From a virus: a DNA stretch of 54,208 bases. This document shows positions 946 through 52,906 of this stretch, piece by piece. The DNA is taken from the IMG/VR virus record IMGVR_UViG_3300029461_000002; one strand, given 5' to 3'. The first letter of the stretch is position 1. Each line of letters begins with the position of its first letter. The notes under the pieces were generated by a model. It ran no database searches and was not told where the DNA came from. It saw nothing but the letters and a program-made list of their open reading frames with translations. Position numbers and translations under genes: made by a program.

Positions 946-1060
946 ATATATTGTTGTTTTTTAAATTCGGAAGAAAGGCCTCATATCCTCACGGACGGAG
1001 ACTTGCTTTGTAAATTGTGACTGATTTTCTGATTGAATAAGCACCCATAGGGGTGAAACG

Positions 1061-1135
1061 TGCTCCCTGCCGGGCTTGAACCGGCGACCTCTCGCTTATG
1101 AGGCGAATGCTCTCGACCAACTGAGCTAAGGGAGC
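1061..1135 (-). tRNA. tRNA with anticodon CAT (Met; possibly Ile2 if lysidine-modified)
   Basis: Manual cloverleaf on the minus strand. Acceptor GCTCCCT/AGGGAGC (7/7 bp), D-stem GCTC/GAGC, anticodon stem TTCGC/GCGAG, loop CTCATAA, variable AGGTC, T-arm GCCGG-TTCAAGC-CCGGC, discriminator A. Length 75 nt, no encoded CCA. Confidence 0.85.
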
Positions 1136-2910: not shown

Positions 2911-3612
2911 ATGGATGCAAAAGATAGGATTTCAAAATATATTGATTTTAAAGGTATTAGCGTTTATAAGCTGGAAGTGGATGCAGGATTTTCCAATGGG
3001 TATTGGAGAAAGACAAGAAGCATTTCTGCTAACGCTGTTGAGAATATACTTAGAGTATATTCCGATTTAGATCCCGTATGGGTTATTACAGGGGTAGGCG
3101 ACATGCTAAAGCAACCGTCAACCCAAGAAGCATCCGGAGACATAATCCCTTTGTCCCATCCTAAGACTCCGGACAAGATATATCCGATGTCCGAGTTTAA
3201 CTTATACGATATAGATGTATCTGCTGGGTTAAGTCGTCTATTCTCGGAGGATGGGGATCGGAACAAGGCTTACCTAGGGAAAATATCAATACCGAATATG
3301 CCTAAATGCGACGGTGCAGTAAAGGTGATAGGTGATTCCATGTACCCGTTGCTTAAATCCGGTGATATAATAGCGTACAAAGAGGTGCATAGCATAGAAT
3401 CCGTGCAATACGGTGAGATATACATATTGCAGATCGAGAATGATTCCGACGTGTCCGTCGTGGTTAAATACGTGAAGAAGTCAAGCGAGGGTAACGACTA
3501 CTTGAATCTAGTGTCATATAATAAGGAGCATGACCCGAAGGACGTGAGGAAGGAGAGTATAACGGCGTTGGCGAGAGTTATTTTGTGTATAAGACAGTTT
3601 AGTATAATGTGA
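2911..3612 (+). CDS. CI/LexA-type phage repressor (N-terminal HTH plus C-terminal S24 peptidase)
   Basis: 233 aa. The N-terminal region is HTH-like. The C-terminal region has GDSMYPLLKSGDIIAY (S24 catalytic Ser motif) and a downstream VVKYVKK lysine. Confidence 0.8.
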   Translation: MDAKDRISKYIDFKGISVYKLEVDAGFSNGYWRKTRSISANAVENILRVYSDLDPVWVITGVGDMLKQPSTQEASGDIIPLSHPKTPDKIYPMSEFNLYDIDVSAGLSRLFSEDGDRNKAYLGKISIPNMPKCDGAVKVIGDSMYPLLKSGDIIAYKEVHSIESVQYGEIYILQIENDSDVSVVVKYVKKSSEGNDYLNLVSYNKEHDPKDVRKESITALARVILCIRQFSIM

Positions 3613-3618
3613 TATAAA

Positions 3619-4548
3619 ATGTATTCATTAAATATAAAATGCTTTTTTTTCATTTGTGCTTTTCTTGTATTGTGCGAAGATACGGTATTGCCTCAATCAA
3701 GGAATAGCATATTTGTTGTTCCTAATGGCGGGAATAGTGGAATATCGTTGTTTGAAAACAACCGTTATAAAATATCTTCCGGACAGACACTTATGAGTGT
3801 GAAAAATATGTCAAAATATGATGAGGCTGAAATGATAGGCATCATACAAGACTATGGCATAGTAATTTATAAAAAAGATACATTTTTGGTTAAAATAAAA
3901 GATGTTAAATCTAAAGACGGTTTGAGCATTAATGAATTTATACAAAAGATACGTAATGATGATAGAAAAGCATTATTAGAATGCAAGATTAAGGAGTTGC
4001 ATAGTATGGTTACTCCAGTAAATGGAGACGTTTATGCTAAAGCTAATGAATTATTTGTGTCAAATTCTTTTATTGATGATGATTCTAGGATAATAAACAA
4101 AGGTGATGATTTGTTGCTTTTAGGGTATAATAACGATACTATATATTTTAACAAGGATTTTGGTATTTATTTTACGGTAGCAAAAAATCTCAATTCAGAG
4201 TTGACAAATAATATCCAAGCACAGATAGATAAGATAAAAGAAGATGAATATAGAAAAGAACAATTAAAATTGCAAGAAATTCAAAGAGAAAAAGAAAAAA
4301 AGTTGGAAAAATTGAAACAAGAGCTTTTCCAAAAAAGCAAGGAGCTATATGGAGAGAAATGTGCTAAGGCTATTATTGAAGAGAAAATTTATATAGGAAT
4401 GCCTTCTGGTGCTGTTAAATTATCTTGGGGTAAACCTATAGATATAAATAGGACTATCAGTAAATACGGAACTCGCGAACAGTGGGTATATGGCAATGGG
4501 TGTTATCTTTATTTTGATGATGGGATATTAGAGACAATTCAGGATTAA
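3619..4548 (+). CDS. Secreted/exported hypothetical protein (AT-rich accessory gene)
   Basis: 309 aa with an N-terminal hydrophobic signal-like segment (KCFFFICAFLVLCEDT) and a lysine-rich coiled-coil segment. Visibly lower GC than the flanks. Confidence 0.5.
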   Translation: MYSLNIKCFFFICAFLVLCEDTVLPQSRNSIFVVPNGGNSGISLFENNRYKISSGQTLMSVKNMSKYDEAEMIGIIQDYGIVIYKKDTFLVKIKDVKSKDGLSINEFIQKIRNDDRKALLECKIKELHSMVTPVNGDVYAKANELFVSNSFIDDDSRIINKGDDLLLLGYNNDTIYFNKDFGIYFTVAKNLNSELTNNIQAQIDKIKEDEYRKEQLKLQEIQREKEKKLEKLKQELFQKSKELYGEKCAKAIIEEKIYIGMPSGAVKLSWGKPIDINRTISKYGTREQWVYGNGCYLYFDDGILETIQD

Positions 4549-4629
4549 ATGTATATTCCCAACATTAATGATGGTGCCTGCAAGGGTGATATTGTGCATA
4601 CGGAAGTTTAATATAATGTAAAATGCAAT

Positions 4630-4989
4630 TTGAATATATATATGTATAAGTATTTTTTATTATTCGTTATGTTTGTTTTTATGACATCTTTTAAAGATGG
4701 CATATCAATAGAAGACAGGTTGGTTTCTTTAGAATCAAAAGTAAGTTCTCTTGAAAAAGAAAATAAAGATTTAAAAGATAGGGTATTGTCCTTAGAGAAA
4801 TATATAAATATCAATGATAAAAATGAAGTTGATGTCGAAAACAAAACAAATATAAAAAATGACAATAAAACAAATGTTTACAGATCGACATATTCAGATA
4901 ACAGATGCCAAGCTACAACTAAAAAAGGAGAGCGATGCAAGAGAAATGCTGAGCCCGGAAGTAAATATTGTTGGCAACATAATAAATGA
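4630..4989 (+). CDS. Membrane-anchored coiled-coil protein with C-terminal Cys-rich motif
   Basis: 119 aa. N-terminal TM (YFLLFVMFVFMTSF), a heptad region, and C-terminal CQATTKKGERCKRNAEPGSKYCWQH. Confidence 0.45.
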   Translation: MNIYMYKYFLLFVMFVFMTSFKDGISIEDRLVSLESKVSSLEKENKDLKDRVLSLEKYININDKNEVDVENKTNIKNDNKTNVYRSTYSDNRCQATTKKGERCKRNAEPGSKYCWQHNK

Positions 4990-5034
4990 TCTTATGTATA
5001 AGCATTTAAGATTATTGATATTGGATAAAACAAC

Positions 5035-6037: not shown

Positions 6038-6105
6038 GGTTATCTATGGTTATCTATGGTTATATTGTAGCTTTGTGTCGCAAATTTGTCGCAAATTTGC
6101 GACAC
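6038..6105. promoter_or_regulatory. Direct repeats and palindrome immediately upstream of int (candidate arm-type/operator sites or attP-proximal sites)
   Basis: ggttatctat occurs twice and is followed by ggttatattg (6038-6067). gtcgcaaattt occurs twice (6078-6099). A perfect 18-bp palindrome tgtcgcaaa|tttgcgaca lies at 6087-6104. Confidence 0.5.
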
Positions 6106-6119
6106 AAAAAACAAACATC

Positions 6120-7310
6120 ATGGGAAGTATAGCGTATTATCTCGACATCAGGAGAGCTAAAAAGGACGGGACATATCCCGTCAAGTTGTACGTGAGTCAT
6201 CACAAGAAGTTTTATGTCAAGACATCCTTCACGTCCAAGATAGATGAGTGGGATTCGTGCCAATACTCCAAGAAAGCTCCGAACTATAAGTCTAGGAACA
6301 TGGCATTAAGAGCAGCTATAAACAAGGCTGAGGAAGTTATGTATAGACTAGAGATGGACGGAAGGTTGGCGGGTATATCGGACACGGCTTTGAAGGCTAT
6401 AATAGAGGAGGCTATATCGGGCAAGCCTAGGAAAGAGATAACGATAGTGGATTGTTTTGACAGGTTTATTGTTACGAAAAGCAGGAAGAATACTATTATA
6501 ACCTATGAGGCCACTAAGAGGAAGATAGTGTCGCTAGGGTTCGATATGCCTATAGGGGATATAGATAAAGCTTGGTTAATCGGGATAGACAAGCGAATGG
6601 AAGAGAGGGGGCTTAGCATAAACTCACGAGCGGTACATCTTAGAAATATAAGAGCTGTAATAAATTATGCCATAGATGAAGAGCTTATCAGTAATTACCC
6701 ATTTAGAAAATTCTCGATTAGAACTGAACAAACGAGAAAGAGATCCCTTACTGTAGATGAATTGATAGCACTTAGGGATTACAAATTAGAAGGAATAGCG
6801 GTTAAATATAGAGATATCTTTATGCTTATGTTTTATCTTATCGGTATAAATGGTGTGGACCTATTTGGTGATTGCCAAATTGTAAACGGACGGCTGGAAT
6901 ATCGGAGATCTAAGACAGGGAAGTTATATTCCATCAAGATAGAACCGGAGGCTATGGAAATAATAAAAAGGTACGAAGGAGATGGCAAGGTAGTTGCCGT
7001 ACCAGAGGAAAATGGAGATTATGGTTATTTTATGATAAGAATGGCTACAAGGTTAAAGAAGATAGGAAAGGAAAAAGGAGGAGACTCATTGTTTCCCGGC
7101 CTATCCTCGTACTGGGCGCGTCACACGTGGGCCACTATAGCCGCCTCGCTCGATATACCGAAGGAGACGATATCCGCCGCTTTAGGTCATGAGATAGGAT
7201 CGCCAATAACATCTATTTATATAAGGCTGGATCAAAAAAAGGTTGATGAGGCCAATCGCATGGTTATAGATTACGTCAATGGCTACAGGAAAAGCAGGGA
7301 TGAGAGGTGA
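6120..7310 (+). CDS. int: Tyrosine recombinase / phage integrase
   Basis: The C-terminal segment WARHTWATIAA...ALGHEIGSPITSIYIR fits the R..HxxR..H..Y catalytic pattern. The N-terminal IAYYLDIRRAKKDGTYPVKLYV resembles the Bacteroidota integrase arm-binding domain. I prefer ATG 6120 over the track's GTG 6075, which lies inside the palindrome. Confidence 0.85.
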   Translation: MGSIAYYLDIRRAKKDGTYPVKLYVSHHKKFYVKTSFTSKIDEWDSCQYSKKAPNYKSRNMALRAAINKAEEVMYRLEMDGRLAGISDTALKAIIEEAISGKPRKEITIVDCFDRFIVTKSRKNTIITYEATKRKIVSLGFDMPIGDIDKAWLIGIDKRMEERGLSINSRAVHLRNIRAVINYAIDEELISNYPFRKFSIRTEQTRKRSLTVDELIALRDYKLEGIAVKYRDIFMLMFYLIGINGVDLFGDCQIVNGRLEYRRSKTGKLYSIKIEPEAMEIIKRYEGDGKVVAVPEENGDYGYFMIRMATRLKKIGKEKGGDSLFPGLSSYWARHTWATIAASLDIPKETISAALGHEIGSPITSIYIRLDQKKVDEANRMVIDYVNGYRKSRDER

Positions 7311-32343: not shown

Positions 32344-32820
32344 ATGGAGTTTTTTAAGATGATTTGCAGCATGAGGGAGCTACTGACTGTAGTCGTGTTT
32401 GAGATGTTCATCGTTATGGTGGCGATGGGCTGGGATTTCGCCTCGGGTTATTACAAGGCTAAATTGAGGGGCGAGGAGCGTAATTCGTATGGCATGCGTA
32501 GGACGGTCAGTAAGTTCATACTTTACGCTGGTAGCGTATGTATAGCGTGCGGGATAGACTCGGTTTGCTACGTGTGCCGGTTCTGGGAATTTATCCATCT
32601 GCCTTTCTTGACCAATGTCCCGGTCGTATCCTCGATAGTGACCGTATTTATCTTGATAACGGAGGTTAGGTCTATCTGGGAGAAGGCAGACGCTAAACAA
32701 AGGAGGCAGGCGATTAAGACAGCCGACATGATCGGTAAGGTTGTAACGCAAAAGGTTTTGGAGGACGCTTTGACAAACGCTTTATCCAATGCCATGAATA
32801 AAAATAAGAAAGGAGAGTAA
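32344..32820 (+). CDS. Holin-like membrane protein
   Basis: 158 aa with 3-4 hydrophobic helices and a charged C-terminus. ITEVRSIWEKAD resembles the holin family 4-type motif. Lies directly upstream of the lysin-like gene. Confidence 0.55.
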   Translation: MEFFKMICSMRELLTVVVFEMFIVMVAMGWDFASGYYKAKLRGEERNSYGMRRTVSKFILYAGSVCIACGIDSVCYVCRFWEFIHLPFLTNVPVVSSIVTVFILITEVRSIWEKADAKQRRQAIKTADMIGKVVTQKVLEDALTNALSNAMNKNKKGE

Positions 32821-32823
32821 AAT

Positions 32824-33234
32824 ATGGGGAAAGACAATTTGCCTCGTGGGTATAGAAACGCAAACCCGGGAAACATCCGGATCAACGGAGACTTGTTCCA
32901 AGGTGAGGTACGTCCGAGCAGGGACAAGTCGTTTAAGCAGTTCGAGACGATGGCGTATGGCTACCGTGCCATATTCCGGATCTTGCGTAACTACTATAAC
33001 AACTATAAGCTGGACACGATCCGCAAGATGATAGGAAGATGGGCGCCGGAAAACGAGAATGATACGGACGCTTACATTAAGGCCGTATCCGATTACGCCG
33101 GTATCCCGGCTGATGATCCTATCAACATCAACGATCGTGAACAGATGATCCGGATCGTGTGCGGGATGAGCAAGGTGGAGAATGGAAGAGAGGCTGAAAT
33201 GTCGGACGTTATAGCTGGATGGAATTTACTTTAA
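32824..33234 (+). CDS. Putative endolysin / P5-like peptidoglycan hydrolase
   Basis: The RNANPGNIRINGDLFQGE motif (RNNNPGNI-type) is seen in P5-like lytic enzymes (from memory). Position after the holin. Confidence 0.5.
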   Translation: MGKDNLPRGYRNANPGNIRINGDLFQGEVRPSRDKSFKQFETMAYGYRAIFRILRNYYNNYKLDTIRKMIGRWAPENENDTDAYIKAVSDYAGIPADDPININDREQMIRIVCGMSKVENGREAEMSDVIAGWNLL

Positions 33235-34347: not shown

Positions 34348-34395
34348 GCACGACGGGAAGATTCTTATAAGTCTTTCTGCCGTGCATTTTTTTTT
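34348..34395 (+). terminator. Strong rho-independent terminator ending the late/lysis operon
   Basis: 14-position stem (34348-34361 pairs with 34372-34385; 1 mismatch, 2 G-U pairs), a 10-nt loop, then a followed by T9 (34387-34395). Confidence 0.65.
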
Positions 34396-34436
34396 GCCCG
34401 GCTTGATAGTAAAACAAACCACGAAATAAAAAGTTT

Positions 34437-34733
34437 ATGAATAAGGTGGAAATTTTTTACAAAAAAGTGATAGAGGCAGTCTGCAAGGAGTGCGGGACCG
34501 ATCCGGTAATGATGTTTAGCAACAACAAGGAGAGGAACGTTGACGCTAGGGGAGTGGCTATAACCATACTGGCCGATCGCAAGTTGAGCGACAATATCAT
34601 ATCCGATCTGACTGGAATGACGAGGCAAGCCGTGAACCGGATGCGTAACTTGTACCCGGACAGGATAAGGAGGAGTTACTACCTGAGGAGGACGGTGGAG
34701 AGCGTCAAAGAGGAGCTATCCGGTACGGTCTGA
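34437..34733 (+). CDS. Small HTH protein (DnaA C-terminal-domain-like)
   Basis: 98 aa. SNNKERNVDARGVAITILADRKLSDNIISDLTGMTRQAVNRM resembles the DnaA domain-IV type HTH. Confidence 0.45.
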   Translation: MNKVEIFYKKVIEAVCKECGTDPVMMFSNNKERNVDARGVAITILADRKLSDNIISDLTGMTRQAVNRMRNLYPDRIRRSYYLRRTVESVKEELSGTV

Positions 34734-34886
34734 GGGTGCGTTATGTTGTAAGGCATGTGATTTGTCTATGAAAAAATTTTCATATAACAAAATTTTGTGC
34801 GACCTTTGCGGCGTAAAAGGTGATTTTGTAGCCTCGTCAAGTAACCAGCCTTGGCAGAGGCTTTGTTGTATACGAAAAGTTTCATT

Positions 34887-35786
34887 ATGGAAATATATAT
34901 GCCACATGCGGTAAATGATATTAGGATAGGAGAAGCCTTCAATCATCTATTCAGGATAATCCTGAAAATGGAGAATTCCGATGATGATGATTTCATATGG
35001 AACTTCCAATATACGGCATTTGTGACTCCATTTTTCTTATTGCCTCTTATGCTTTATAGAGATAAGTGCGGTAAGAATGTGGTTTGCAAGAATATATCGG
35101 ACAGTGTTAAAAGCTATCTGGACTCTATTCATTTTGAAGGAGGTGTAGTAGCTGACAGTGTTAGTGATTTTCATAATTATATGGAATATTTTTCTATGAA
35201 AAAATATATTCCTATAATAAAGTTCCCGGGATGTAAAAGCAAGGATAGCATAAAAAACGATATACTGTCTGTAGCAGAGAATATAATGATAAGGCAATTA
35301 AATATTGAAGGAGAGTTGAGAAAGGCTTTATCTTATATGCTGACTGAGACGATTGACAATATATCTGAACATTCAGAGAGTGAATTTGGTTATATATTTG
35401 CTCAGTATTATCCGTCAAAGAGTTATATAGACATTTGCATAGCGGATAATGGTATAAGTATACTGGGTAGTTATGTTAAGTCTGGCAAGGGAGGTATAAC
35501 TAACGATGTGGAGGCTTTAAAAAGCGCTGGAAAGGGTATATCGACTAAAAATTTACCAGATACCGAGAATCGTGGTTATGGTATAAGTACTTGCAAGAGA
35601 ATGTTGTCTAAGGGACTTGGAGGAACATATTTTTTGCTGTCAGGGCAAGCATTTCATCTTATGTCAGAGGAAGAGACATCATATATAGGACTTCCTGATT
35701 ATATAAAATGGGATGGAACTATAGTGGCATTAAGGATACCATATAAAGAGGAAAGGATGTTTAATTTTTATGAATATTTAGAATGA
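34887..35786 (+). CDS. GHKL-type ATPase / anti-sigma-factor-like serine kinase homologue
   Basis: N-box LTETIDNISEHSE, G1 box CIADNGISILG, G2-like NRGYGISTCKRML...GGTYFLLSG. The N-terminal roughly 150 aa are of unknown function. The track ORF starts at TTG 34851; I prefer ATG 34887. Confidence 0.6.
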   Translation: MEIYMPHAVNDIRIGEAFNHLFRIILKMENSDDDDFIWNFQYTAFVTPFFLLPLMLYRDKCGKNVVCKNISDSVKSYLDSIHFEGGVVADSVSDFHNYMEYFSMKKYIPIIKFPGCKSKDSIKNDILSVAENIMIRQLNIEGELRKALSYMLTETIDNISEHSESEFGYIFAQYYPSKSYIDICIADNGISILGSYVKSGKGGITNDVEALKSAGKGISTKNLPDTENRGYGISTCKRMLSKGLGGTYFLLSGQAFHLMSEEETSYIGLPDYIKWDGTIVALRIPYKEERMFNFYEYLE

Positions 35787-36142
35787 AGATCATGGAAAAG
35801 ACAATTGTGATATCAGAATTGATAAGGGGAGAGCTTCGTTCTAGGACAGAAGCTAAAAAAATCTATATGAGGGCTAAGGATTTGAATAGCCCATGTGTAC
35901 GTATAGATTTTAAGGATGTATACTTTATGTCTCGATCATTTGCGGATGAGTTATGCAATACAATAGAGGCTTTGGCCTTGGATAAAGTGAGGGTCTCTAT
36001 GGAGAATGAGAACGACTCTATAGATCTGATGATGAAAATAGTAAAAGGTAATAGAAATAAACCGAGGAATATGCATGAGGACAGTGAGGTTAAAGAATTT
36101 TCGGACATGGATTCATTGTCAGAGTTCCTGTCTACCATATAA
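35783..36142 (+). CDS. STAS-like (DUF4325-type) small protein, partner of the GHKL ATPase
   Basis: 119 aa with a 4-nt overlap with the ATPase gene. VRIDFKDVYFMSRSFADELCN resembles the STAS-like DUF4325 pattern (from memory). Confidence 0.45.
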   Translation: MKIMEKTIVISELIRGELRSRTEAKKIYMRAKDLNSPCVRIDFKDVYFMSRSFADELCNTIEALALDKVRVSMENENDSIDLMMKIVKGNRNKPRNMHEDSEVKEFSDMDSLSEFLSTI

Positions 36143-36173
36143 AATTATTTCATGCTATATAAAAGAGAATGAT

Positions 36174-36335
36174 ATGAAAAATCCAAAAATAGCTAAGGAG
36201 TATAATGAATTCCTAGAAAGGAATAGTTTTGATAAATACTCAGATAGAAAAAAATATATATCTAGTCCAACCACGCTACAATGCATGTATTGGAAACAGG
36301 TGGAACCGGTAGAAATAAAAAGTAACCAACCATAA
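36174..36335 (+). CDS. Hypothetical small protein
   Basis: MKNPKIAKEYNEFLERNSFDKYSDRKKYISSPTTLQCMYWKQVEPVEIKSNQP is the internal-ATG version of track ORF 36075..36335. Confidence 0.3.
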   Translation: MKNPKIAKEYNEFLERNSFDKYSDRKKYISSPTTLQCMYWKQVEPVEIKSNQP

Positions 36336-36388
36336 AAATTAAGCGTTGTATATGCCTTTGGTTTGAAAGGTTTAAACAACAACAATAA

Positions 36389-36421
36389 GCGTCGTCAACA
36401 CAAATTGGCGGCGCTTTTTTT
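36389..36421 (+). terminator. Rho-independent terminator closing the AT-rich accessory unit
   Basis: Stem gcgtcgtc/ggcggcgc (8 bp including 2 G-U), a 10-nt loop, then T7 (36415-36421). Confidence 0.6.
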
Positions 36422-36556
36422 GTCTTATCCCCTTCCGCAAAGAACTAGCAACAACCTCGCAACAAGCTAGCAAGGAGATATTTATTTAGCAAGGCACTTC
36501 TCTGGATTTTTGTGGTGTCCGGGATAACCCGGATATGACCATAAAAAACTTCACAT

Positions 36557-50812: not shown

Positions 50813-52906
50813 TTATTTTTTATAAAAACCTTGGAACCTCACGATACCTAGATACTCGGGAGATTTCATTAGTCCGTCCCCCATGCCGCCCAACGTCTCG
50901 GCTCCCGGCTCGTCAAGGACAACCTTGGAGTCAATCTCCTTGGGTACACGGAAGCAAATCTGTACGGGGAAATTCACCTTAGCGTCTCCCGTGATCACGT
51001 TAACCGACGCTCTTTGCGTAGCCGCCATGATCCGGAACCCAAGCGATCGTCCCTTTTGTAGCAACATCTTCAGATTCTCCTCCAATGACTTTTCACGACC
51101 GACCGTGCGTAGCTCCATTTTAGGCTCGAGGAACCCGAAGGCGTTCTTTCGCTGGCCAACCTCGACCATTTCCTTTATGTCAAGTTCCGTTCCCGATCGG
51201 GAGGACGCTACCGCGTCGGCGAACTCATCGAACACCACCAGCGTTTTCCATGATGCCCTCGATTTAGCCCTTTCCTGCATATCCTGTACGAGCTCTTTCA
51301 TCTTGGCCTCTATTTCTTCTATATCATTATAGACCTTTATGTATTTCTCGGAGGAATAATTACAGAACTCGTATTTCGGATCGAAAATTACGATGTCCCG
51401 GATACCGGCTAAGCGGGCGTATTCTATCGTGGATATGATACACACGGATTTACCGCTACCGGTAGCTCCGCAAATCAAGGCGTGAGGCGTGGAGTTGTTA
51501 TCGAGATCCCACACCACGAGCCTTCCGAAGTTATCCGTTCCTATGGGAATCCTCATGCCGTCGATATACTTCTTGTCCCAGTACAAGGACTTGGTTCTTT
51601 TCTTCGGTGATTCTATGGAGAGGTAGGATTTTCCCTCATACACCATAAGCTCGTTACCCATCCTTATGGATGGCACGTCCAGCGCGTTCGCTATGTCTAG
51701 CTTGTATTTCATCACTGTCGTGATCTTTGTCCCAGCGGATACCTCTAGCAGATACGTGTCTGACGAGTATCCGTTAATCTCCTTGGACACGTTCACGATC
51801 ACCCCGAATGTCCGTAGGATATGCTCTATTTTCTCGCTGTTTGTCATATTACTATTGGATAAATCGTATTGAATGAATGAGGAAGCGTTCCTCTTGAACT
51901 CGGATATTACCTTGGGGTTTACCGATCCAAGGGAAGCGTCCCGTATTTTTTTCTGTCTCTTCGATATCAATTCCTTCTTTGACTCGGGCACGTTGAAATC
52001 ATCGACCTCCGCTATCAGCGTCTTGGCCCAGAAATTATAAAGCTCGGCCCTGTCCACGAAGTTGTCGCTATCGTTGATCATGTACACGTAATCCGGATCG
52101 GACACGGCCTCTATCATCCTTTTTAGCGGCTCGTACAATATGGCCTCGTAAAGCTTCCTCGTGTCGTTATCGAGATTGATCACGAATTTCTTCAACTGGG
52201 AGGAGCCGTCCTTGTTTTTCGAGATCTTGTTCTCCACGAACCATACCTCGTCAACATTCTCCCCGAAGCGGGACTCATAGCACTTGACGTAGGTCATTGC
52301 CTGTTTCCCGCAGATAAACGTTAGCTCCTCGTCATCGGTGAACTTGGCCCTTGACTTATGGTCTATGATGACCGTCCGACCGCTTTCCGTCCTTATCGCC
52401 AAGTCTAGCCTAGCGTGGCAGGGTAGGGGGATGTCCACCCCGTTTATCGTTACCCATTCCTCGCACCTTGATTCCACGGCGATTATCTCCTTGATACCGG
52501 AAAGATAGATATCCTTCTCCCCGTAGAAGTTATTGATAAGCCTCGTGGCGTTCTTGGTGGCCTCGATCTTGCATTCCTCTACGGTAGGTGTCGTTTTCTG
52601 TATCTTCCAATCATTCGGGTGTACCTCCTCTATGTATGAGAACGCTACCCTCTCCATTTCCGTGATCGGTATTATCTGCCCCTTGCGCTGTAGCTCCATG
52701 AAGAAATACTCCAAGGCCGAATGATAGGCGTTACCCGCCACCGTGCTGGAGGATGATCTGGATCTTTCCCGGTAAATCTCCCGTTTCTCGAACTCCTTCT
52801 CGTTCCGGGAGAAAGAGGCTACCTTGCTGTAACTCCAAGAGTCGATAAGGTAGTTTGATAAATGCTCCTCCAGCTCGGCGTTGGTATAGGATGAGTACTT
52901 GTTCAT
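50813..52906 (-). CDS. Fusion protein: N-terminal PD-(D/E)XK (RecB/Cas4-like) nuclease plus C-terminal FtsK/SpoIIIE-type P-loop ATPase
   Basis: N-terminal half: HARLDLAIRTESGRTVIIDHKS (D...D-x-K). C-terminal half: PHALICGATGSGKSV (Walker A), LVVFDEFADAV (Walker B), and IMAATQRASVNVITGDAKVNFPVQICFRV...GAETLGGMGDGL, as in FtsK_SpoIIIE. Confidence 0.65.
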   Translation of the reverse strand: MNKYSSYTNAELEEHLSNYLIDSWSYSKVASFSRNEKEFEKREIYRERSRSSSSTVAGNAYHSALEYFFMELQRKGQIIPITEMERVAFSYIEEVHPNDWKIQKTTPTVEECKIEATKNATRLINNFYGEKDIYLSGIKEIIAVESRCEEWVTINGVDIPLPCHARLDLAIRTESGRTVIIDHKSRAKFTDDEELTFICGKQAMTYVKCYESRFGENVDEVWFVENKISKNKDGSSQLKKFVINLDNDTRKLYEAILYEPLKRMIEAVSDPDYVYMINDSDNFVDRAELYNFWAKTLIAEVDDFNVPESKKELISKRQKKIRDASLGSVNPKVISEFKRNASSFIQYDLSNSNMTNSEKIEHILRTFGVIVNVSKEINGYSSDTYLLEVSAGTKITTVMKYKLDIANALDVPSIRMGNELMVYEGKSYLSIESPKKRTKSLYWDKKYIDGMRIPIGTDNFGRLVVWDLDNNSTPHALICGATGSGKSVCIISTIEYARLAGIRDIVIFDPKYEFCNYSSEKYIKVYNDIEEIEAKMKELVQDMQERAKSRASWKTLVVFDEFADAVASSRSGTELDIKEMVEVGQRKNAFGFLEPKMELRTVGREKSLEENLKMLLQKGRSLGFRIMAATQRASVNVITGDAKVNFPVQICFRVPKEIDSKVVLDEPGAETLGGMGDGLMKSPEYLGIVRFQGFYKK

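Follow-up and report, generated by a model that had tools for sequence, protein, structure and literature searches.

Background

Kinase–STAS switches that sense DNA damage have been described under the names CapKS and VapKSC (Chambers et al., EMBO J 2026; PMC13373217). In VapKSC the STAS-GHKL protein VapK phosphorylates VapS at S48, upon which the PIN toxin VapC is released; VapS inhibits this toxin via its STAS domain together with a C-terminal helix, and the system protected E. coli from one phage (PMC13373217). CapK is switched on by single-stranded DNA (ssDNA), and CapKS acts as a transcriptional controller of immune operons (PMC13373217). A few three-gene vapKSC operons from Bacteroidota are listed in the same paper (PMC13373217), which does not mention two-gene or phage-borne forms. 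Here we describe a gene pair of related architecture, further called K and S, in the virus record IMGVR_UViG_3300029461_000002 (54,208 nucleotides; the whole of this stretch is referred to as the window).

Our analysis suggests that K–S is an autonomous and mobile two-gene switch of the CapK/VapK type, most likely serving the lysogen as a toxin–antitoxin-like module for phage exclusion or abortive infection, an explanation to which we assign about an even chance. The pair is probably a self-contained variant of the VapK/VapS defence switch, without a linked effector. The kinase–STAS switch as such is known from CapKS and VapKSC; new is the effector-less and largely phage-borne form. An earlier, sequence-only reading of the window had stated that no function was described for such a pair, which no longer holds now that the CapKS and VapKSC relatives have been reported (PMC13373217).

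Two coupled genes for a STAS-GHKL protein and a STAS partner

The region at positions 34348-36421 of the window contains four open reading frames (ORFs) on the plus strand between two terminator hairpins. Its two central genes, both markedly AT-rich, are the following:

34887-35786, plus strand: K gene, ATG start, 299 amino acids (aa); STAS-like domain followed by a SpoIIAB-like GHKL domain
35783-36142, plus strand: S gene, 119 aa; STAS/DUF4325 protein, its start overlapping the stop of K (ATGA)

The mechanically called ORF of K begins at a TTG at 34851; the 299-aa form starting at ATG 34887 has an identical protein in public data. By the ATGA overlap, K and S are translationally coupled.

K consists of a degenerate STAS-like domain (residues ~1-115) and a SpoIIAB-like GHKL kinase domain (~117-299), whereas in S a STAS/DUF4325 domain (~6-90) is joined through a disordered linker to a C-terminal helix (109-117) that is amphipathic and conserved. 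These assignments are based on family-level matches and predicted structures, as the window proteins alone remain under the Pfam gathering cut-offs: K reaches 12 bits against HATPase_c_2 (PF13581; E 0.21, cut-off 27.4 bits) and S 16.8 bits against DUF4325 (PF14213; E 0.0058, cut-off 23 bits). The Pfam check proposed in the sequence-only reading thus gave sub-threshold scores for the window proteins; within their families it gave matches at E<=0.01 in 10/25 homologues of K (best 2.1e-5) and in 9/15 homologues of S. Both proteins also belong to PHROGs that are functionally unassigned (K to phrog_3364 with E 3.5e-36, S to phrog_20761). The Pfam scan yielded no helix-turn-helix (HTH) family match for K or S, NCBIfam had no match for K, S or the 53-aa ORF that follows them, and comparison of the K and S profiles by sequence with all PDB chains gave nothing usable.

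AlphaFold2 models K as a two-domain protein (pLDDT 87.9, pTM 0.88). For the C-terminal one the best fold match in the PDB is SpoIIAB (TM on target 0.67-0.75), in entries that are complexes with sigma-F or SpoIIAA. The N-terminal domain matches the fold of the STAS protein RsbS, and its profile can be aligned to the S family (E 7e-5), although it lacks the hydroxyl residue. For S (pLDDT 86.8) the fold matches are RsbS, the prestin STAS domain, the stressosome and RsbV.

Conservation was assessed with a genomic scan using one genome per species, in which 157 genomes, almost all Bacteroidales, carried a relative and 80 loci were kept. Counts for K are taken from 79 loci plus the window (n=80) and those for S from 76 loci plus the window (n=77). 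The GHKL motifs of K are found at 152-164 (LTETIDNISEHSE), 187-194 (DNGISILG) and 230-234 (GYGIS), with E154/N158/H162 in the N box, D187-x-G189 in the G1 box and R229-G-Y-G232 in the G2 box. Invariant in 80/80 sequences are E154, N158, H162, D187, G189, S219 and K221, and likewise E227-N-R-G230-x-G232, G243, G246, S252-G253 and G277-T278. Because these GHKL residues are invariant throughout the family, K is taken to be a nucleotide-binding enzyme under selection. In S a motif F-x-[S/T]50-R51-S52-F53-x-D55-E56 stands out, of which R51, S52, F53, D55 and E56 are invariant in 77/77. Position 50 is a threonine in 46 sequences and a serine in the other 31; being always hydroxylated, with exchange between the two residues, it looks like a phospho-acceptor.

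The sequence-only reading had recognized much of this: the N, G1 and G2 boxes are as it quoted them, with key residues invariant in all 80 K sequences, and its call of a SpoIIAB/RsbW-type GHKL protein with a translationally coupled, STAS-like DUF4325 partner agrees with the family-level matches, the predicted structures and the ATGA overlap. Its description of the kinase was right as to the domain called but overlooked the additional STAS-like domain at the N-terminus.

Comparison with VapKSC, CapKS and other systems

Sequences of VapS, VapK and part of CapK were taken from the AlphaFold files of PMC13373217. Aligned with hhalign to VapK as a single sequence, the K profile is colinear over 259 columns (E 5.5e-5, probability 66%); the S profile aligns with the single sequence of VapS at E 1.7e-4 (probability 49%), which places position 50 of S on S48 of VapS. 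Given these colinear profile alignments and the matching lengths, we consider K–S to have the VapK–VapS architecture and to be a remote homologue of that pair. K and VapK both combine a STAS-like and a GHKL domain without an HTH domain (299 against 302 aa), S and VapS both consist of a STAS domain with a short C-terminal helix (119 against 116 aa), and in both systems the kinase gene precedes the STAS gene and a conserved Ser/Thr is situated at the N-terminus of STAS helix 2. Both are moreover encountered near defence genes and on mobile DNA. Unlike VapKSC, the K–S family is mostly from Bacteroidales and largely prophage-borne, and its trigger and protective effect are putative.

CapKS shares the kinase–STAS substrate logic, the STAS+GHKL core and a box N-x3-H-S-x-S (N-x3-HSES) that is common to CapK, VapK and K, and the basic hairpin of CapK (K237/K239) corresponds to K178 of K, a position that is basic in most family members. 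In contrast, the N-terminal HTH of CapK and the C-terminal winged HTH of CapS are absent from K and S, and whereas CapKS is located upstream of an immune operon, S is followed by nothing more than the 53-aa ORF and a terminator. The equivalent of CapK W68 in VapK is F27 according to the sequence and F54 according to PMC13373217; no claim is built on it.

With the partner-switching modules SpoIIAB/SpoIIAA and RsbW/RsbV the pair has in common a GHKL fold, a single-domain STAS protein and the logic of serine phosphorylation. It differs by the lack of a linked sigma factor or PP2C phosphatase, by the extra N-terminal STAS-like domain of K and by being mobile, phage-borne and present in an archaeal provirus. 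On account of this extra domain, K is grouped with CapK and VapK and not with the classical anti-sigma factors. Type II toxin–antitoxin and RosmerTA modules resemble K–S in a different manner: they too are AT-rich, translationally coupled gene pairs, and they replace K–S one for one in the same slot (see below). Nonetheless, no known toxin is similar to K or to S, and the control proposed for K–S is phosphorylation and not degradation of an antitoxin.

A conserved pair in variable surroundings

In 76/76 loci for which sequence was available (of the 80 kept), S lies directly 3' of K. The flanks of these 76 loci are otherwise unrelated: no cluster of neighbouring genes within 4 kb is common to more than 5/76, the top cluster being integrase-like. 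Among seven contexts inspected no PIN gene adjoins K–S, and neither does a sigma factor or PP2C gene in the inspected contexts; an ECF-type sigma gene lies ~6 kb away in three loci (L011-L013) and is absent from the other contexts. The pair is encountered at prophage ends beside integrases, after amidase/holin genes, with HicA toxin genes on its flanks, in integrase+WYL islands near type I restriction-modification (R-M) genes, and in a variable chromosomal island that does not look like a prophage and carries HipAB and a methyltransferase. Surroundings of this kind are accessory and mobile.

The family is large: at a threshold of E<=1e-3 it has 4,241 clusters (50% identity), of which 1,440 match at E<=1e-10. 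A relative was encountered on 120 viral contigs, and more than 60 gut viral contigs in IMG/VR among them encode a K identical to that of the window. One metagenomic protein (P0258, 1266 aa) consists of an alt-Cas3/DpdF/PsyrT-like DEAD/ResIII helicase with a K-type STAS+GHKL module at its C-terminus (E 1.9e-56), a fusion that links the K module to nucleic-acid-handling defence proteins. Another N-terminally extended form of K is P0239 (527 aa).

Beyond Bacteroidota the spread was followed with tblastn of GenBank phages. In the Streptococcus agalactiae prophage phiGBSVK-E1, holin and lysin genes are followed by a K-like protein (HATPase_c_2, E 2e-5) and an overlapping gene for a 99-aa DUF4325 protein that passes the cut-off (41.8 bits); this placement after the lysis genes is the same as in the window. 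In the S. agalactiae prophage (L264:3365-3565) a CsbD-like general-stress gene (E 4.6e-12) is situated 3' of the pair, before the prophage end. The Methanothermobacter provirus psiM100 (L263:2183-4804) encodes a K-like GHKL protein (ORFB) and a DUF4325 protein (ORFC; 29.4 bits, above the cut-off) within the 'inserted fragment IFa', which sets psiM100 apart from psiM2. The same fragment contains, 3' of these two genes, a 492-aa ORFD of no clear family. As judged from annotation and matching sizes, Francisella phage KIRK has such a pair between CI and integrase, in which a protein of 293 aa precedes a DUF4325 protein of 112 aa.

An exchangeable cargo slot

The window is a temperate phage related to Bacteroides phage BF1-TP2 (host B. 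fragilis BL19), and the stretch around K–S is 98.8% identical to gp44-gp41 of that phage. Sibling phages (n=78) were collected via the DUF6808 protein encoded upstream. They share a slot frame with a conserved order (DUF6808, terminator 1, HTH gene, cargo, terminator 2), which in the window comprises the following elements:

34348-34395, plus strand: terminator 1, a 15-pair hairpin with an internal mismatch (34348-34385) followed by nine Ts
34437-34733, plus strand: gene for a 98-aa HTH-like protein; gp44 of BF1-TP2, annotated there as 'Bac_DnaA_C domain'; slot frame
34734-34864, plus strand: shared leader between HTH gene and cargo, with a small hairpin at 34847-34862
34865-36156, plus strand: minimal swappable cargo, comprising the K and S genes, from blastn junction mapping
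36174-36335, plus strand: small ORF of 53 aa; gp41 of BF1-TP2; slot frame
36387-36423, plus strand: terminator 2, a 12-bp stem (36387-36416) followed by seven Ts; closes the slot

The junctions of the cargo are sharp. On the left, homology stops at 34864 (type of locus L226), on the right it resumes at 36157 (type of L256/L232), and with 14 cargo-variant phages it resumes exactly at 36384-36387. A boundary near 36290, read from the ends of megablast high-scoring segment pairs, was rejected as it reflects breaks in the alignment; the blastn junction mapping was used instead. The contents of the slot, for which the ORFs were checked in one representative per size class, can be divided as follows:

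K–S: 26 loci
HicA (PF07927, E 5.9e-18) with a HicB-like protein: ~13 loci
SocA_Panacea antitoxin pairs of two different kinds: 3 + 3 loci (E 1.3e-9 and 3.6e-23)
197-aa protein with RmrA (RosmerTA antitoxin model): 2 loci (PADLOC E 5.5e-60)
Pair of 422 aa and 71 aa: 4 loci, no family match
Neither the HTH gene nor any of the above cargos, ~450-490 bp from DUF6808 to the next gene: 3 loci

The HTH gene is kept in ~25 sibling phages without K–S, the 53-aa ORF is also found 3' of the Panacea pair in L256/L232, and terminator 1 is kept together with IG1 in the sibling phages regardless of cargo. These three elements, together with terminator 2, hence belong to the slot and not to K–S, and terminator 1 is the end of the late/lysis operon as well as part of the slot frame. 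A four-gene unit running from terminator to terminator, considered as the functional module, was dismissed, as phages with a different cargo retain its HTH gene and its 53-aa ORF. Since the frame persists in this way and no neighbour is conserved over the 76 loci, we regard K and S alone as the functional unit.

Both hairpins fold far better than shuffled sequences, in line with the two strong terminators that had been predicted around the unit. Terminator 1 reaches -19.6 kcal/mol (z -4.5; 0/200 shuffles fold as well) and terminator 2 reaches -18.6 kcal/mol (z -6.3 against shuffled controls); a simple terminator scan detected terminator 2 only, terminator 1 being found by folding against shuffles. 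The other predictions for the region fared unequally. That the interval is an accessory cassette is borne out by the exchange of K–S for other modules in the sibling phages, whereas the self-contained unit between the terminators is real as a slot, but its module is the K+S pair at 34865-36156. The higher AT content of the ATPase and STAS genes was correctly noted: the GC (guanine-cytosine) content of K (0.341) and S (0.367) is lower than that of the lysis genes (0.451) and the HTH gene (0.495), the cargo as a whole (34865-36156) has 0.346, and such AT-richness is seen in only 5% of windows of the same size. The small HTH protein exists as a 98-aa ORF, but its assignment is weak (Pfam HTH_26 E=0.009, Bac_DnaA_C E=0.02). 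The last ORF, given as 54 aa, actually counts 53; it has no significant family match in Pfam, NCBIfam or PADLOC, and its best PHROG match has an E of 0.07.

The leader is homologous to that of phages with other cargo up to 34836 or 34864, as obtained by junction mapping, and could be a shared promoter, a 5' untranslated region or a recombination hotspot. A small ORF begins within the leader (MSMKKFSYNKILCDLCG...), and its hairpin (34847-34862) lies right at the recombination junction. The 422-aa and 71-aa pair (L226:7245-8734, also in L227, L228 and L241) has a GC content of 0.32 and no Pfam or PADLOC match; it is a candidate for an uncharacterised toxin–antitoxin or defence pair.

Proposed function and alternative explanations

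By homology to CapKS and VapKSC, K would bind S and phosphorylate it at S/T50 (or alternatively S52), a step that we consider quite likely within the reading of an exclusion switch, and phosphorylated S would then let go of its partner. K itself would respond to a cue from infection or DNA damage, which might be ssDNA bound between the STAS-like and GHKL domains; that ssDNA is the trigger is conceivable, albeit with more doubt than confidence. As no effector gene is linked to the pair, the growth-arresting activity might by elimination reside in the pair itself, which is the weakest step of the argument: K, freed from the decoy S, would bind or phosphorylate an essential component of the cell. 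K being the effector strikes us as rather doubtful, and an alternative output is a target that is not encoded beside K–S. Taken to its end, this leads to a speculative proposal, to which we would give well under an even chance: K–S would be a complete two-protein toxin–antitoxin or abortive-infection system of a new type, in which a GHKL kinase effector is held by a STAS decoy and freed by an infection cue such as ssDNA, its target being so universal that the module could function in Bacteroidota, Firmicutes, Proteobacteria and archaeal proviruses.

The defence or exclusion role, one of the options named in the sequence-only reading, gains support from the homology to VapK/VapS together with the presence of HicAB, Panacea-type and RosmerTA-like modules at the same place of the slot. 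Several observations weigh against it. That toxin–antitoxin modules occupy the same slot is an association and no proof, and K–S lacks VapC/PIN or any other conserved third gene. The similarity to VapK and VapS is remote and visible at profile level only, as the two hhalign probabilities indicate, and at F18 and F45, which align with the aromatic proposed to stack on ssDNA, family members have F, L or I and are thus not strictly aromatic. A promoter search upstream of K and of the HTH gene found neither a sigma-70-like site nor the -7 motif of Bacteroides (TAnnTTTG), whose count across the window equals chance expectation. Finally, the PADLOC check gave no system-level match: in PADLOC-DB v2.0.0 K matches only part of a single DrmA model, its GHKL segment (positions 102-249 of the 1750 in the profile; E 2.7e-8), a lone match that is explained by the helicase–K fusion in P0258, next to a marginal and not system-specific Type II methyltransferase match (E 0.0023), and it has no match for S.

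The missing third gene can also be read differently, with K–S as the sensor or switch half of a VapKSC-like system in which an effector whose gene lies elsewhere, such as an unlinked PIN/VapC-like nuclease, is bound by S and set free once S is phosphorylated. The amphipathic helix kept by S would fit this, given that VapS inhibits VapC via its STAS domain and C-terminal helix (PMC13373217), as would the three-gene vapKSC operons of some Bacteroidota (PMC13373217). It is hard to reconcile, however, with a pair that moves among unrelated phages, islands, phyla and archaea without a linked partner, and no PIN protein is annotated in the inspected 42-kb stretch of BF1-TP2; we consider an effector in trans unlikely. 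The position directly after the holin and endolysin genes of a temperate phage, together with the response of the CapK/VapK relatives to DNA damage (PMC13373217), might instead suggest that the pair is the phage's own damage-responsive input to prophage induction or lysis timing. Yet a Peptidase_S24 (CI/LexA-like) repressor and an integrase are already encoded by the phage, about two thirds of the sibling phages lack K–S or have toxin–antitoxin pairs in its place, and it also occurs in a chromosomal island that does not look like a prophage, so that a role in the phage life cycle appears decidedly improbable.

Still lower we rank classical partner switching, with K as an anti-sigma factor on a host sigma factor, S as its antagonist and lysogenic conversion of transcription as the result. 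Although the best structural matches of the GHKL domain are SpoIIAB with sigma-F or SpoIIAA, and JGI labels homologues as 'anti-sigma regulatory factor', no sigma or PP2C gene is conserved nearby and the extra N-terminal STAS-like domain is a hallmark of CapK/VapK. The K–S-like pair of an archaeal provirus furthermore makes it less plausible that sigma factors are the general target, as archaea have none. The control of host sigma factors put forward in the sequence-only reading is for these reasons poorly supported, and we accord it very little probability. The least probable explanation in our view is counter-defence, in which the phage copy mimics parts of a host CapKS or VapKSC, as decoy substrate or hijacking kinase, to blunt immunity. 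K–S is indeed carried by a phage and has an immune sensor pair as its homologue, and phages often capture immune components; but pairs of the same architecture lie in chromosomal islands beside HipAB, R-M and WYL genes, the other occupants of the slot are toxin–antitoxin and defence pairs, and both partners always occur together with intact catalytic motifs.

Other features of the host phage

The genes that characterize the phage in the window include the following:

2911-3612: Peptidase_S24 (CI/LexA-like) repressor
6075-7310: integrase
32344-32820: holin
32824-33234: endolysin

The lysis region holds two further genes beyond the holin and endolysin. A tRNA-Met gene (1060-1135, minus strand), located towards the left end of the window at ~5 kb from the integrase gene, may mark the prophage attachment site. 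Directly 3' of the repressor gene, positions 3619-4989 form the most AT-rich stretch (GC 0.29 at 4001-5000) and encode proteins of 309 aa and 119 aa, with nothing above the Pfam cut-offs and no PADLOC match; the 119-aa protein has two marginal, sub-threshold Pfam matches only. This may be a second accessory or moron slot. In the early/replication arm a 697-aa protein (50813-52906, minus strand) combines a PD-(D/E)XK nuclease with an FtsK/HerA-type ATPase and matches PADLOC mad8 (E 2e-21) as well as the C-terminus of SspH.

Implications

CapKS and VapKSC need an output, either a repressed operon or a PIN toxin, while K–S is abundant across phyla and in archaea without a linked one. Knowledge of the target of K–S would show whether a kinase–STAS pair can itself be the effector. 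It would at the same time assign a function to PHROG 3364, PHROG 20761 and much of DUF4325. The mapped slot, with its HTH gene, cargo and terminator, provides a natural catalogue of exchangeable two-gene modules and a clean genetic handle on them. For the Bacteroides phages of the human gut, whose interplay with their hosts is poorly charted, K–S would add a prophage-encoded exclusion system.

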